A DNA stretch of 64,000 bases from Candidatus Doudnabacteria bacterium (lineage in GTDB: Bacteria; Patescibacteriota; Doudnabacteria; UBA920; 2-01-FULL-46-14). Both the position numbers and the translations under genes were made by a program. Below, in pieces: positions 3,427 through 64,000 of the stretch (the stretch's first letter is position 1; every line of letters starts with the position of its first letter). The stretch is from assembly GCA_041497195.1 (NCBI GenBank), contig JBGQGB010000005.1:9243-73242 (forward strand). The letters run 5' to 3'. The notes under the pieces are model-generated. The model was not told where the DNA came from. It did no database searches and saw only the letters and a list, made by a program, of their open reading frames with translations.

Positions 3427-3960
3427 ATGAAAATCCCTACTAATCGTAGGTTCACACTTGCCCTGATGCTGGGCTTTTTATTTGCCACACCACTGCTCTC
3501 CCAGGCTCACGGTGGCGTTTCCCAAACTGTCGGCAATGTGGTGGTGCATCTCAACCAAACCCCGATTTCGCCGCTGCTGGGCGAGGAAGTCACCATGAAC
3601 TTTTCCATTCGGAACTTACAAAATAAACCCATACCCAATTTGCCGATTGAGCTCAACCTGACAGACACGTTCTACGGCGACGCCACCAAAGACAAACTCA
3701 TTCTGACCAAAAACTTCACGACTGATGTCAACGGCGATTTTGCCTTTACTTATAGCTATAATAAAGAAAACTATTTCGATATTGACCTGAATTTCCAAGA
3801 CCCGGACACCAAGCAAGATGAAGAAACCGGATTTCTGGTCCAGCCGCGGGACGCAGTCATCATCTCGACCAAACAAGCGATTTACCAAGACCTCGGGCTG
3901 CTGGCCATGGGGTTTCTCCTGGCCCTCATCGCCCAGGAATACTGGTGGCGGAAAAAATAA
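3427..3960 (+). CDS. hypothetical secreted/membrane-anchored protein (signal peptide plus C-terminal TM helix)
   Basis: Start trimmed to MKIPTNRRFTLALMLGFLFATPLLSQA (signal-peptide-like); C-terminal LGLLAMGFLLALIAQEYWWRKK. Confidence 0.45.
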   Translation: MKIPTNRRFTLALMLGFLFATPLLSQAHGGVSQTVGNVVVHLNQTPISPLLGEEVTMNFSIRNLQNKPIPNLPIELNLTDTFYGDATKDKLILTKNFTTDVNGDFAFTYSYNKENYFDIDLNFQDPDTKQDEETGFLVQPRDAVIISTKQAIYQDLGLLAMGFLLALIAQEYWWRKK

Positions 3961-12704: not shown

Positions 12705-14168
<1,464 letters not shown>

Positions 14169-14587
14169 AAGGATCGTCCAAAAATCAAAGATTTTCGAAC
14201 ATCCTAATTGGCTCAAGCCTGTCCTCCAAAACTCCCCGAGGAGAGTGAAGGACGAATAAATGAGCTAGCGACAGATATTTTTTACCTTTCGATTTCACTC
14301 AAGGTAACCCTGAGCGAAGTCGAAGGGTTATAATGGTCATCTGTCAAAAACCATCCAAAATCAATTGGAATTGACGCGTAATTGACCCTGCTTCCGAACT
14401 TGACGAACGGAACCAGGGTTTCCTATCACTATTCAGTTGCCAAAGAACTTTTGCCTTGTTTAAGCTCCAAAAGATACAAAAAACACGCGATCCAAAGCGT
14501 GTCATATCCCCCGAACACACGAATTTCTTAGGAATTGCTTGCGACTTTTGTCTCCTTTTAAAAAAGCTTAATAATTAAGGCTCCTTT

Positions 14588-60432: not shown

Positions 60433-60923
60433 GTTGGTATGATCAAAGATAATAAATTGTCTTGGCGGAGAGGGTTAAACTTCACTTCGTTTCGCTTAAC
60501 TTAACTACTCTTCCATTCTTAAACTTCTTCAGCGCCTACTAAGCGAAGCGTTAGCGAAGTTTAATGGCGCAGCTCTACGCCTTTCTTCAAACCTATTTTA
60601 GCAGAAAACAGGGGTAATTTACCCCTACATTCACCCCTACATTCGCTATCCCTCGGAATGTAGGGGTAGCTAGTCTCGATATTGGCTTCAATGCTCGGCT
60701 TTCTCGCTCTCGCTGGGAAAAATCTCAACCCCCACTTCACTCCGCATTACCCCCTCCTTGGTGCCTCCGTTCGAGCCTGTGATTTGATCACGCCCAACTC
60801 GTCGCCGAGTCTGTGCCTTACCGCCCTGCGGGCGGGGGGGTCGGGCGCCCAAAATTCCTCCCCTTGAAAATAATTAGCTCACGGCCGCATGGCCGAGAAC
60901 CGCAAGCGCGAGCGCTTGATCAA

Positions 60924-61715
60924 CTAAGAATCAAGAAACTCGCTCGCTTTCTCTAGCCATTGGTCGGGGTGCGCCCACATGAGCGCATGGTCCGCACCTG
61001 CTATTACGACAAGCTTCGACCCGGCGATGCCGTCGTGGAGCATGGAAGCGTGATGCATCGGAACAGCGTTGTCGTTTGAACCGGCGATGATGAGCGTCGG
61101 ACATCTGATTTCATGCAAACGGCTGCGGCTGTCGAAAGCCATCGCTTCCCTCCACGCGAGCGCAATGGACTTGGCGTCTGCTTCGCCCCAAGTGCTGGCG
61201 ATAAGATTCGCAACCCACGCCCCCTGCTCCTTCGGGATTTGTTTGAGGCCTTGCGATATCATGAGCTTGACGAAAAGCCGCACGCCGAGCAGGCGGATGA
61301 GGAGAGGGACGATATGGCCTTCCAGTTTCTCTTTCATGGTCGCCATGTTGTACGCGTAGGTGTTCGAGAGGATAAGGTGGCGCACTTTCGCCGGATAGTC
61401 GAGCGCGAGTTCCTGAACCACCGGGCCGCCTTGCGAATAGCCGAGTGCGTCCGCCGAAGTGATGCCGAGATGGTCGAGCAATACAGCCAAGTCCGCCGCC
61501 TGTTGTTTTACGGAATAGGGAGGCGGCAAGTTGCGGCTTCTACCCCAGCCGCGAAGGTCGGGAATGATGAGTCGGTGGCGCTTCGAGAGCGGCTCCACGA
61601 CCGGCTCGAACATGTCTCCGCTCATTCCCAGCCCGTGCACCAAAAGTAGCGGCGGCCCCAACCCGCGCTCGGTGAAGTACAGGAGGTCTGACGATGTAGG
61701 AGAGTTCATTTCCAT
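60924..61715 (-). CDS. alpha/beta hydrolase fold protein, conspicuously GC-rich relative to the window
   Basis: HGLGMSG oxyanion region, nucleophile elbow GYSQGG, C-terminal His (GADHALM). Confidence 0.75.
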   Translation of the reverse strand: MEMNSPTSSDLLYFTERGLGPPLLLVHGLGMSGDMFEPVVEPLSKRHRLIIPDLRGWGRSRNLPPPYSVKQQAADLAVLLDHLGITSADALGYSQGGPVVQELALDYPAKVRHLILSNTYAYNMATMKEKLEGHIVPLLIRLLGVRLFVKLMISQGLKQIPKEQGAWVANLIASTWGEADAKSIALAWREAMAFDSRSRLHEIRCPTLIIAGSNDNAVPMHHASMLHDGIAGSKLVVIAGADHALMWAHPDQWLEKASEFLDS

Positions 61716-62259
61716 GAATAATTAAGCATGACTTACGACTTCCTCTCAAATTCCATGAGGAGCGAGAGATAGTGCTTTTAGGTATCTGCATCAATCCAAG
61801 ATGTCGCGAGGGGAGGTATCTTTCCATCTGAAAGGATGATGCGGTTTATTGCATCAAAGTAAAATCCTTCCGGCGTCGCTAGAAAAAGCCACGCGACAGT
61901 CCAGTACTCGCGCACTTTGGCAAAAAGCGATGATAACCAAAACGTGCGCGGGTTCCTCGAAAAGATTGGTTCGAACTTCCGGCTCGCCGCACGGCGGCTC
62001 GATTTTTCCTACACGAACGATTGGATTGTACTATCCGAAAACGACGAACGATTTAATTGGCGGTGACGATGTCCACAACTTTGAACCGAAAGTGCGGCTC
62101 AAATTCGAGAATCTTGATAAAAGTATACAGGAATTAAGACGAATTTATAAGGTTCATCCAGAATGGTTTGAAACACCTAAACCAAAGTCGGATAAGGGTA
62201 AAAACGTCGTAGATTATTCTGTTTTATCTTAGAACTCCACCGCGAGCGGTAAATCCTTG

Positions 62260-62661
62260 TCAGGCTAAAATTTTTCTCTCGCCAAGATAATTCTTCGTTA
62301 TGAACCCAGTCTCGCCCGTAATCTTTGCAACTTGATATGAACTCTCGACAGAATCAATAACAAAGTCGAGACTGTAGAACGATGAAATCGCAATCATTAT
62401 GTCAGTGATGGGCACACTACTCTTAAACGTTCCTCGTTCATCGTCTTTCTCGATTTCAAAAAATTTTTCACTTTCGATTAACTCTTTCAGATGACCATCC
62501 TTAATTCTTCGATCCTGAATATCACACTTTTTAACTTTCCATCCTGCATCTTTTAGCCTTTTTTCTATAGTTGAAGTATCTACTAGGATTGTGACCCACA
62601 AATGTCCCATCATGAGTCGCACGCAATTTTTTGCTGACAAAGGCATAACAGAGTAAGGCAC
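62260..62661 (-). CDS. hypothetical protein (possible start at MMGHLW)
   Basis: ORF only; AT-rich; lies within the decayed element region. Confidence 0.35.
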   Translation of the reverse strand: MPYSVMPLSAKNCVRLMMGHLWVTILVDTSTIEKRLKDAGWKVKKCDIQDRRIKDGHLKELIESEKFFEIEKDDERGTFKSSVPITDIMIAISSFYSLDFVIDSVESSYQVAKITGETGFITKNYLGERKILA

Positions 62662-62695
62662 AATATTGCGAGTAAATTGTCCGTTTTCCTCGTAG

Positions 62696-64000
62696 AAACT
62701 CTCTTGGAACCCGGATCGTCTCGCCAGAAATTCTATAGACGGAGGACAAATTATTTATCTCTTGGACACAGGAAAGATTAAAGATTTGAAATTTCCAACA
62801 CATTGGTTTGAAAATACTCCCCAAGGAAAATTCATGCTAAACATTGCCTTTGGGCAAAGCAAATATTATGTTGATAATCTTTCAGAAAACATCAAACGTG
62901 GACATAGAGCAAAACTTCGCAAAGGAATTTGGCCTAGCTTTGCCCCGCTTGGTTATGTGAACAATCACAAGACGAGAGATGTTGACCTTGATACTGAAAA
63001 AGCTCCGCTAGTCCGAAAAGGTTTTGAGTTATACGCAACAGGTAAATATACACTGAAGCAGATTGCAAGAGCGTTGAAAGACCTCGGACTGCGGAGCTAC
63101 AAAGGCAATGTTCTTGCAGTTTCCTGTGTCCAGAGAATTTTGAAAAGCACTTTTTACTATGGAATTTTCGAGTTCAAGGGCGAGATGCATCAAGGTTCGC
63201 ACGAGCCGTTGATTTCAAAGAAACTTTTTGATAAATGCCAAGAAGTGATGAAAGATCGCGGACATATTAAAACGAGAAAAGCAGAGAACACTTTTCCATT
63301 TCGCAGATTACTCACTTGTGGAGAATGTAGTTGTATGATTACCGCCGAAACACAGAAGGGGCATAACTATTATCGTTGTACTAAAAAGAAAAGTGCTTGT
63401 TCACAAAAATATGTCCGCGAAGAATTACTAACCGAACAAGTGAAAAGTTTTCTTCAAAAAGTTTCTTTGCCAAGCCAAGACACCGAGAAAGTTTTGTGCG
63501 AGCTGGACAAGGACGAGCAGAAAGCTAGGGAGAATAGTAAAGTTTTCGTAGAAAATCTCAAAAGTGAGTTAGCTGATGTTGAAGTACGGTTAGACAAATT
63601 GCTTTCTGCCTATCTCGATGAAGTAATCACGTCAGAAGAATATGCCGCGCAAAAACAAAAAATGCTCGACCAGAGAGTAGAGCTTAAAGAGAAAATCACT
63701 GAAATTGAAGACAAGGGTGTGTCTTGGCTCGAACCGGCTCGTGCGTGGGTTAAATCCTTGAATCAGGCGGAGAACTTGCTTGAGAGTGGGGATAAATCGG
63801 AAATGACAACATTTCTAAAACAAATCGGCTCGAACCATATTTTGATTGATAAATCCTTTTCCTTTTCGCCCAAAAAGTCCTTTCAAATCCTATGCGAGCG
63901 GCGCGTTCCGCGCCGCGAGGTTGAGCTTTCTTTCTTGCAAAATTCCAATTGGCGGTGTGTATTGAACGAAGTTCGAATGTATTTTGAATTGAATCCTGAC
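62696..64000 (+). pseudogene. large serine recombinase (resolvase/recombinase/zinc-ribbon type), N-terminal catalytic region interrupted by two in-frame stops; 3' end runs off the window
   Basis: Downstream frame reads ...DRLARN..., the recombinase domain and a C4 zinc ribbon (CGECSCM...YYRCTKKKSAC) with no stop before 64000; upstream in the same frame FFADKGITE-TAA-GTILRVNCPFSS-TAG-KLSWNPDRLAR; no catalytic Ser motif recognisable. Confidence 0.55.

Follow-up and report, generated by a model that had tools for sequence, protein, structure and literature searches.

In Dehalococcoides, the islands at ssrA are served by DsiB, a CcrB-like serine recombinase, and the staphylococcal cassette chromosome SCCmec has been compared with these islands (PMC3146451). 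The last 3.5 kb of the stretch analysed here (the window, 64,000 nt of contig JBGQGB010000005.1 from a Candidatus Doudnabacteria bacterium) belongs to a stack of three small mobile elements, E0, E1 and E2, of which it makes up the dead, older portion. Positions 60,462 to about 67,964, counted in window-equivalent coordinates beyond the window end, form with a probability of about 0.8 in our judgement a 7.5-kb tandem array of three mini-elements of the large serine recombinase (LSR) type at the 3' end of tRNA-Ser(CGA). This array shares with the Dehalococcoides islands the choice of a small stable-RNA gene, entered at its 3' end, the tandem pile-up, the repeats of the gene's 3' end as borders, the integrase gene adjoining the RNA gene and the older layers without working modules (PMC3146451). 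It differs from them in its target, tRNA-Ser (with a few other tRNAs in the family), and in the tiny size of its elements, 2.5-4 kb (PMC3146451). Furthermore, the elements described here have a single recombinase and no DsiA partner, the open reading frame (ORF) of this recombinase crosses the crossover point, and an internal inverted copy of attP is present. LSR-driven tandem or composite arrays at one site, with decayed layers, are likewise found in SCCmec and composite SCC, where CcrAB or CcrC act at rlmH. SCC targets the 3' end of a protein gene, usually needs two recombinases and, unlike the present family, has no recombinase ORF spanning att. Ccr tolerates several att pairings, and for the present family we infer a similar tolerance. 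A tandem stack at a tRNA gene is in itself an ordinary outcome for mobile DNA.

Two contigs with 100% identity to the window continue past its end: L001 (JGI Ga0534155_0000159, 91.7 kb) and L009 (NCBI GCA_041485525.1, JBGPJQ010000005.1, 79.4 kb). Here L-numbers denote the contigs or loci compared and P-numbers the homologous proteins; an L001 coordinate is 71,716 minus the window coordinate. Five more assemblies match the recombinase region at 100%, which gives seven other assemblies in all that cover the deletion junction discussed below. According to the first-pass annotation, which was made from the window alone, the recombinase gene LSR2 runs off the window end; its stop codon is only 9 nt past position 64000. 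After this stop come a 108-aa ORF, a 359-aa membrane protein and a 72-aa XRE-type helix-turn-helix (HTH) protein, all on the strand opposite to LSR2, and then LSR1 on the same strand as LSR2. The extension past position 64000 that had been advised as a check led in this way to an intact recombinase of 522 aa (Resolvase positions 2-144) fused to tRNA-Ser(CGA). The tRNA gene occupies L001 3662-3752 (window-equivalent 67,964-68,054), 4 kb past the window end, and its 3' end is overlapped in antisense by the LSR1 stop codon. In these contigs the array abuts the tRNA gene at its 3' end, with an integrase gene adjoining it.

The heptamer TTGGCGG encodes W-R in the recombinase frame and is read on the opposite strand as the CCGCCA(A) of the tRNA. 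It forms the core of five sites in the genome (Table 1): three cores follow the 3' coding end of an LSR (...WR), and at another a 13-nt stretch of the tRNA end recurs. By itself the heptamer is common in the window (16 on the plus strand, 14 on the minus strand), and therefore the weight lies in the context of the sites. A search for an att repeat on the far side of the island, also advised earlier, found TGGCGGAGAGGGT at 60463-60475, which over 13 nt directly repeats the 3' end of tRNA-Ser(CGA) as read on the reverse strand, in the correct orientation; the GC shift starts just inside this site 5. Sites 5, 4, 3 and 1 share one orientation, as tandem accretion predicts, and the decay of the layers grows with distance from the tRNA. 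The recombinases fall into three subfamilies with 35-48% identity, LSR1 and LSR2 being only 48% identical. The region had first been described as the scar of a serine-recombinase-mobilised island carrying a foreign hydrolase. The kind of DNA was recognised correctly, while the single element turned out to be two decayed layers of a three-layer array. One element that brought the hydrolase and decayed in place would agree with the one recombinase gene visible inside the window and with the foreign composition on both its sides. However, such a history is highly improbable in view of three separate recombinases from different subfamilies, whole or as remnants, each of which runs into a core and element arm of its own, and of an intact element between the decayed one and the tRNA; the LSR3 remnant in E0 and LSR1 already contradict it.

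We propose that three elements, each with its own LSR, successively entered the 3' end of tRNA-Ser(CGA), with the crossover at TTGGCGG, near the C-terminus of the recombinase and at the terminal CCGCCA(A) of the tRNA. Since the crossover is shared by the W-R codons of the LSR and the end of the tRNA, a newcomer would land between the tRNA and the recombinase of the previous element, displacing the older layers outward and giving the older recombinase a new C-terminal tail. Of the three layers, E0 retains a captured hydrolase gene and no more than 63 codons of its recombinase, E1 was killed by one deletion of about 1.5 kb that fused the interior of its cargo to recombinase codon ~72, and E2, just beyond the window, is intact.

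Several points weigh against the array and its proposed history. What is known of E2 and the tRNA was read in further assemblies of this population and is not supplied by the window. The P' motif has been lost from the arm of site 5, where the boundary is marked only by the 13-nt match and the change of composition. The flanks of the hydrolase match nothing, and it may have entered the remains of E0 independently. The exact empty site, in which the tRNA end is joined to the left flank, had 0 matches in metagenome contigs and none in a close relative; circular forms were not found either, with no terminal overlaps among 125 loci. In addition, insertion beside an older element would need attP to recombine with an attR-like site (with a P-type left arm), unlike the studied serine integrases, which do not recombine attP with attL or attR (PMC3783163). 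On the other hand, conservation and synteny of the region in relatives, which the first-pass annotation had named as counting against a mobile island, were not observed. Two distant relatives, L014 and L015 (the latter labelled Candidatus Doudnabacteria), whose major facilitator superfamily (MFS) proteins are 57-59% identical to that of the window, retain the flanks in the order rnhB, tRNA-Ser(CGA), variable DNA (1.3-7 kb) and MFS, and neither an LSR nor the hydrolase is present between their tRNA-Ser(CGA) and MFS genes. Within the region no tRNA and no Rfam family at the gathering threshold was detected, and a promoter and terminator scan of 60.1-64 kb gave counts at chance level.

Table 1. 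Features of the tRNA-Ser(CGA) array in window coordinates, listed from the distal boundary towards the tRNA
Feature	Position	Strand	Description
Site 5, distal island boundary	60462-60475	+	Core TTGGCGG (60,462-60,468), then AGAGGGT
E0, putatively the oldest layer	60,469-62,056		GC-rich alpha/beta hydrolase and last 63 LSR codons
E0 left part	60476-60923		Decayed element arm and GC-rich (0.59) non-coding spacer
Alpha/beta-fold hydrolase	60924-61715	-	263 aa, intact; Pfam Abhydrolase_1 at 3e-33
LSR3 remnant	61875-62063 (including core)	+	Last ~63 codons of an LSR of a third subfamily; ends ...NDERFNWR
Site 4 core, E0/E1 junction	62057-62063	+	TTGGCGG directly after the LSR3 3' remnant
E1, middle layer	62,064-63,948		Decayed; arm, cargo remnant, LSR2-delta
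E1 element-side (P'-type) arm	62064-62147	+	TGAAC at offset 18 after TGGCGG
E1 cargo remnant	62260-62703	-	3' part only; residues ~318-469 of a ~469-aa orphan family
Deletion junction	62695-62703		Joins cargo-gene interior (codon ~318) to LSR2 interior (codon ~72)
LSR2-delta	62701-64000, stop 64007-64009 beyond window	+	5'-truncated LSR, codons ~73-508
Site 3 core, E1/E2 junction	63949-63955	+	TTGGCGG, W-R codons of LSR2
E2, putatively the youngest layer	from 63,956 (L001 3747-7767)		Intact, 4 kb; almost wholly outside the window
Start of E2 P' arm (b)	63956-64000	+	First 45 of 204 nt; supplies the last 17 codons of LSR2, CVLNEVRMYFELNPDDQ
Site 2	outside window		Internal and inverted, close upstream of the start codon of LSR1; here the 3' end of LSR1 recurs as a perfect 120-nt copy, joined to 204-nt arm b'
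Site 1	outside window		Junction of tRNA and LSR1 3' end

In the middle layer, the P'-type arm of E1 is 76% identical over 93 nt to the corresponding arm of L029, and its motif has the same spacing as in 60 of 63 P' arms. The following gene (62260-62661), which was taken for a hypothetical gene at first, is no complete gene either: it corresponds to the ~152 C-terminal residues of a protein family of ~469 aa (phmmer against 1.8 billion representatives). It is 52% identical to P0361 residues 332-468, and the homology extends in frame upstream to 62,703 (ESFYEENGQFTR vs DSFYEAEGQFTR). On the other strand, a recombinase-like frame opens at ~62,696(+) and stays open for 437 codons, and the homology of LSR2 to intact relatives (P0002, 93% in protein; L011, 88.5% in DNA) starts abruptly at 62,695-62,701, at codon ~72. 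The meeting of the two homologies at 62,695-62,703 marks a single deletion (~1.5 kb), which merged the interiors of two divergent genes with loss of both 5' ends and of the DNA between them. If E1 was built like the rest of the family (see below), its internal attP copy would have gone with this DNA. Furthermore, tblastn over the region and the whole window found no remnant of the missing resolvase N-terminus.

The resolvase domain had been described as broken by in-frame TAA and TAG codons, which did not hold: TAA (62654) and TAG (62693) fall in the antisense of the cargo remnant, outside the LSR2 homology. The catalytic serine was lost with the ~72 codons of the 5' deletion and not by stop codons. 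An alternative genetic code or a sequencing error for these stops was also rejected, because they lie outside the homology and the seven other assemblies are 100% identical over the junction. The remaining product, LSR2-delta, covers only positions 70-144 of the 145 of the Resolvase profile and lacks the YARKS motif and the catalytic Ser, while the Recombinase domain (PF07508, 6e-17) and the zinc beta-ribbon (PF13408, 1e-8) are both intact, just as the first-pass annotation had stated. LSR2-delta is a dead member of the large serine recombinases. It is 86-93% identical to intact relatives of 490-550 aa, and its stretch from the zinc ribbon to the C-terminus is long and charged, as expected with a coiled-coil insertion.

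The ratio of nonsynonymous to synonymous substitution rates (dN/dS) on the terminal LSR2 branch was 0.096, within the range of the intact relatives (0.054-0.107). Therefore, either the deletion is young compared with the divergence or selection still constrains the frame, and we favour a recent deletion. LSR2-delta might also be a retained, catalytically dead DNA-binding protein that blocks or regulates related elements at att sites, which would suit the open frame, a dN/dS not above that of the intact relatives, the identical sequence in 7 assemblies and the other N-terminally truncated copies in databases. However, a retained function is highly improbable: LSR2-delta has no ATG start and no promoter-like site above chance, the same deletion destroyed the neighbouring gene, as an accident would, the best-sampled other truncated copy (P0050) was merely split by an IS110 insertion, and a recent deletion explains the low dN/dS equally well.

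Two other explanations of the truncation were considered and rejected. A recurrent truncation of displaced LSRs at one codon was suggested by P0050 and its relatives, which start with ...DRLARN; their truncation comes from the IS110 insertion after WHP seen in L110, and no insertion sequence (IS) remnant is present in the window. In L110 (4130-7142) the related recombinase is split after ...AWHP by an IS110-family element with a DEDD transposase, and the split copy occurs on 17 contigs. A deletion through recombination of the lost internal attP of E1 with a pseudo-site is not compatible with the DNA left of the junction, which is cargo gene and not an inverted P' arm.

The outermost layer, E0, carries the hydrolase, which was rightly singled out as GC-rich in the first reading. 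Its GC content is 0.587 (0.57-0.63 over this part of the window, compared with 0.496 window-wide), and its GC at third codon positions (GC3) is 0.72, against 0.55-0.60 in the neighbouring host genes and 0.36-0.40 in the recombinase layers. The translated sequence contains the GYSQG nucleophile-elbow motif, and the exact protein is present on nine public contigs. Among homologues on long contigs, the closest share 80-85% identity with it in protein and 87.5% in DNA (over 782 nt), and they lie on contigs of 60% GC with sulfatase, NHL-repeat, Ser/Thr-kinase, Crp and glycosidase genes, a gene content foreign to the candidate phyla radiation (CPR), and the DNA homology to these contigs is confined to the hydrolase gene, ending at the gene ends. 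Composition and homology together indicate a horizontal acquisition from a ~60%-GC non-CPR bacterium. The position and orientation of the hydrolase gene match those of the cargo genes in other layers, and it may well have arrived as the cargo of E0. The left part of E0 (60476-60923) had no homologue among the 100+ related loci. About 300 nt downstream of the hydrolase, at 60590-60680, a repeated cccctacattc with an inverted copy forms a hairpin followed by a minus-strand T-run, which may be a terminator or a remnant of donor DNA.

To the right of the hydrolase, the first-pass annotation had noted about 1 kb of mosaic sequence without an intact reading frame. The mosaic measures 0.5 kb and holds the LSR3 remnant of 63 codons, then an att core and arm. 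The remnant is 35% identical over 63 aa to the full-length LSR of L099 (E 3e-9), and further support came from tblastn (E 0.006-0.008) and from DNA matches to the LSR 3' parts of nine loci. Gene callers place a 127-aa ORF in a different frame over this stretch, which is probably spurious.

Searches with LSR2 and LSR1 each gave >7,000 homologues, some on near-complete ~1-Mb genomes, with source labels including Parcubacteria group, Sungbacteria, Pacebacteria, Liptonbacteria, Minisyncoccia and Patescibacteria group. The family survey was based on 80 metagenome loci plus several others that were fetched; about 85 relatives, from metagenomes of Patescibacteria, share the family design. Of 62 testable loci, 57 have an inverted repeat of 60-144 nt on either side of the recombinase gene, in most cases with 96-100% identity between its arms. 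The gene's own 3' end forms one of these arms, and the other lies ~20-45 nt upstream of the ATG. The arms are spaced by 1,387-1,486 nt (all but one by 1,387-1,450), and the outer end of the repeat is the core. An antisense tRNA is fused to 54 of 79 LSR 3' ends: tRNA-Ser in 50 (GCT, TGA, GGA and CGA, with ACT called once, which is unusual), and in one case each a tRNA for Leu, Phe, Trp and Ala. Beyond the upstream attP copy there is always an element-specific arm, which usually (~35 loci) recurs inverted 0.6-4.5 kb upstream, at the far end of the element, given enough contig. From these regularities, the order of an integrated element reads as attL (x/P'), cargo, an inverted full attP copy, recombinase and attR (P/tRNA).

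The recombinase ORF spans the crossover, and its tail is either antisense tRNA (...WR/RGWDSNPR...) or element arm (...WR/CVLNEVRMYFELNPDDQ and variants). The element-arm tails vary between elements mainly by synonymous changes, which argues that they are translated. An attP within the integrase gene and a tRNA target are also known for the Int of myxophage Mx8, where integration replaces the C-terminus, as here. However, Mx8 Int is a tyrosine integrase and belongs to a different recombinase superfamily, and Mx8 has no internal inverted attP copy. Stacking is frequent in the family, with more than one LSR segment in 28 of 84 loci. LSRs with element-type tails lie upstream of a second LSR, if this is within the fetched flank, in L073, L086, L088, L099 and L106, and in the same way LSR2 precedes LSR1 in the array of the window. 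In L025 the two subfamilies of the window's genome are found again at tRNA-Ser(CGA), in reversed stacking order. Full-text literature searches returned no description of this architecture, nor of LSR elements in CPR, and an ORF across attP with a constant internal inverted attP copy looks undescribed.

Two candidates were rejected during the survey. For a phage origin of the family, there were only three weak or partial matches in IMG/VR, and for the cargo proteins PHROGs and PADLOC gave nothing except one XRE-type HTH. The recombinase-sense ORF of 115-157 aa that some annotators place across the internal attP is no real gene, since its copies align at 13-26% and are of low complexity. Two loci showed unusual arrangements. 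In L045 (1-3135), two full-length recombinases of different subfamilies are convergent, tail to tail, which stacking in the same orientation does not explain. In L013 (1800-2410), two tRNA-Ser genes face each other, the second being fused to an inverted recombinase arm with a 73-aa recombinase 5' fragment, and this suggests an element-mediated rearrangement between tRNA-Ser loci.

Phage serine integrases such as A118/LI, phiC31 and Bxb1 have the same succession of Resolvase, Recombinase and zinc-ribbon domains, and in LI integrase the half-site motifs of attB and attP are displaced by 5 bp (PMC3783163). In our loci, CGAA[CT] stands at offset 13 after TGGCGG in 42 tRNA arms, and 60 of the 63 element arms have it at offset 18. 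The two kinds of arm match the 5-bp shift expected of attB versus attP. The shared core is defined to 6-7 nt only, and catalysis of attP x attB recombination at a 2-bp crossover is a prediction. The phage systems differ in that attP lies outside the int ORF, a second inverted attP is absent and attP x attL/R is excluded (PMC3783163). The P' arms of many loci (e.g. L025, L026, L028, L031 and L044) contain a GC-rich hairpin 30-60 nt from the core whose sides covary (gtcccgc/gcgggac, gccgcgc/gcgcggc, gcccgcc/ggcgggc), which suggests that the element arm keeps a structure under conservation. Pieces of the 5' coding region of the recombinase (REFAAKEKLEIV; the antisense holds TTTGGCGG), inverted or repeated, were seen scattered in the cargo of L008 (147-249), L011 (1535-1568) and L013 (2275-3243), and they may be a secondary recombination site.

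The E2 region contains both inverted repeats, perfect ones of 120 nt and 204 nt whose arms are 100% and 99.5% identical, and several assemblies break within repeat b. An assembly artefact, to which both facts could point, is nevertheless extremely improbable: the same architecture, with arms of 77-100% identity (92% and 97% in L008), recurs in dozens of unrelated metagenomes and with different assemblers. The orientation of the recombinase cassette was as in LSR1 (state I) in 54 loci and reversed (state II) in 3. In state II the tRNA is on the same strand, the core joins it to the upstream arm in inverted form, and the recombinase retains the element tail, xLLxKVRxYFExNPxD, which is conserved through synonymous changes. 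One of the three, L105, has a recombinase 90% identical to LSR1, also at tRNA-Ser(CGA), and its P/P' junction is identical to site 2. An LSR beside its own P' arm was found in no locus other than those in state II. The look-up for other states of LSR1 drew on 90%-clustered entries, and LSR1 itself was not among them. State II could have arisen either from a circle with two inverted attP sites that integrates through either one or from inversion of the cassette after integration.

Inverted repeats around a recombinase gene call to mind inversion switches. In the Gin/Hin/Pin systems, the shufflons and the yeast 2-micron plasmid, a recombinase and inverted repeats bound a flippable segment, and coding 3' ends are swapped at the crossover. 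The enzymes of those systems, small serine invertases or tyrosine recombinases, act on sites that are identical, whereas in the present family one site is of attP type and the other of attR type, and what they flank is the recombinase gene itself. If our inverted repeats were chromosomal inversion switches of the shufflon or Gin kind, the window would be a worn-out switch. The inverted repeat around the LSR gene in most testable loci and the occurrence of both orientations relative to the tRNA in nature, including the close LSR1 relative at the same tRNA in L105, speak for it. It is nonetheless unlikely: the elements have a patchy distribution, many tRNA targets and a composition of their own, the enzyme is an LSR of ~500 aa and not a small invertase, the two sites differ in one arm (tRNA vs P'), and the attB/attP-type dichotomy of the arms together with the tandem stacks marks integration, while inversion cannot make stacks.

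Under integration, the preferred reading of the family, the internal inverted attP copy might still be functional and make the recombinase cassette a two-state device, a tentative and rather doubtful idea. Orientation would then set the C-terminus of the recombinase, with the self-encoded tail in state II and a junk antisense-tRNA tail in state I. If true, state I elements would be locked in, accounting for the excess of state I and for the stacks. The spare attP would keep a putative high-affinity recombinase site ~20-45 nt upstream of the start codon, allowing autoregulation. A serine integrase would furthermore have, in this arrangement, a novel means of controlling its directionality or expression that needs no separate directionality factor.

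For the window, an odd patch of sequence is explained as routine decay of mobile DNA, and a genome of the CPR (Patescibacteria) is seen to have acquired a hydrolase gene from a GC-rich free-living bacterium. The family architecture, rather than the window finding, is worth following up. It consists of very abundant minimal integrative elements (2.5-4 kb) that target tRNA-Ser isoacceptors and whose attP and attB can be read directly from the sequence. Genome engineering could draw on them for compact serine integrases whose sites are defined. In the reduced genomes of Patescibacteria, gene flow may have a main hot spot at tRNA-Ser loci. The constant internal inverted attP and the ORF spanning attP, both foreign to the studied serine integrases, raise a testable question about the control of directionality or expression.

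Some minor observations concern the surroundings. A small basic ORF (MMRASDTLADSRVQKPKNF..., 57 or 96 aa) lies within element arm b at L001 5441-5614 and 7420-7710, its second copy beginning ~300 nt beyond the window end. Its ATG overlaps the stop codon of the recombinase tail, and it could be noise or a coupled accessory gene, perhaps for a directionality factor. The 16S rRNA gene at window positions 12706-14170 is complete, with no 23S or 5S in the 64-kb window, and the rRNA genes appear unlinked. Past the tRNA-Ser in L001 (2305-3506), the RNase HII gene has its 3' end in two copies (2305-2360 vs 3451-3506, 75% identity), which flank a 271-aa orphan gene; in L014 and L015, rnhB directly abuts tRNA-Ser. 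The L001 arrangement looks like a separate insertion that brought a replacement 3' end for rnhB.

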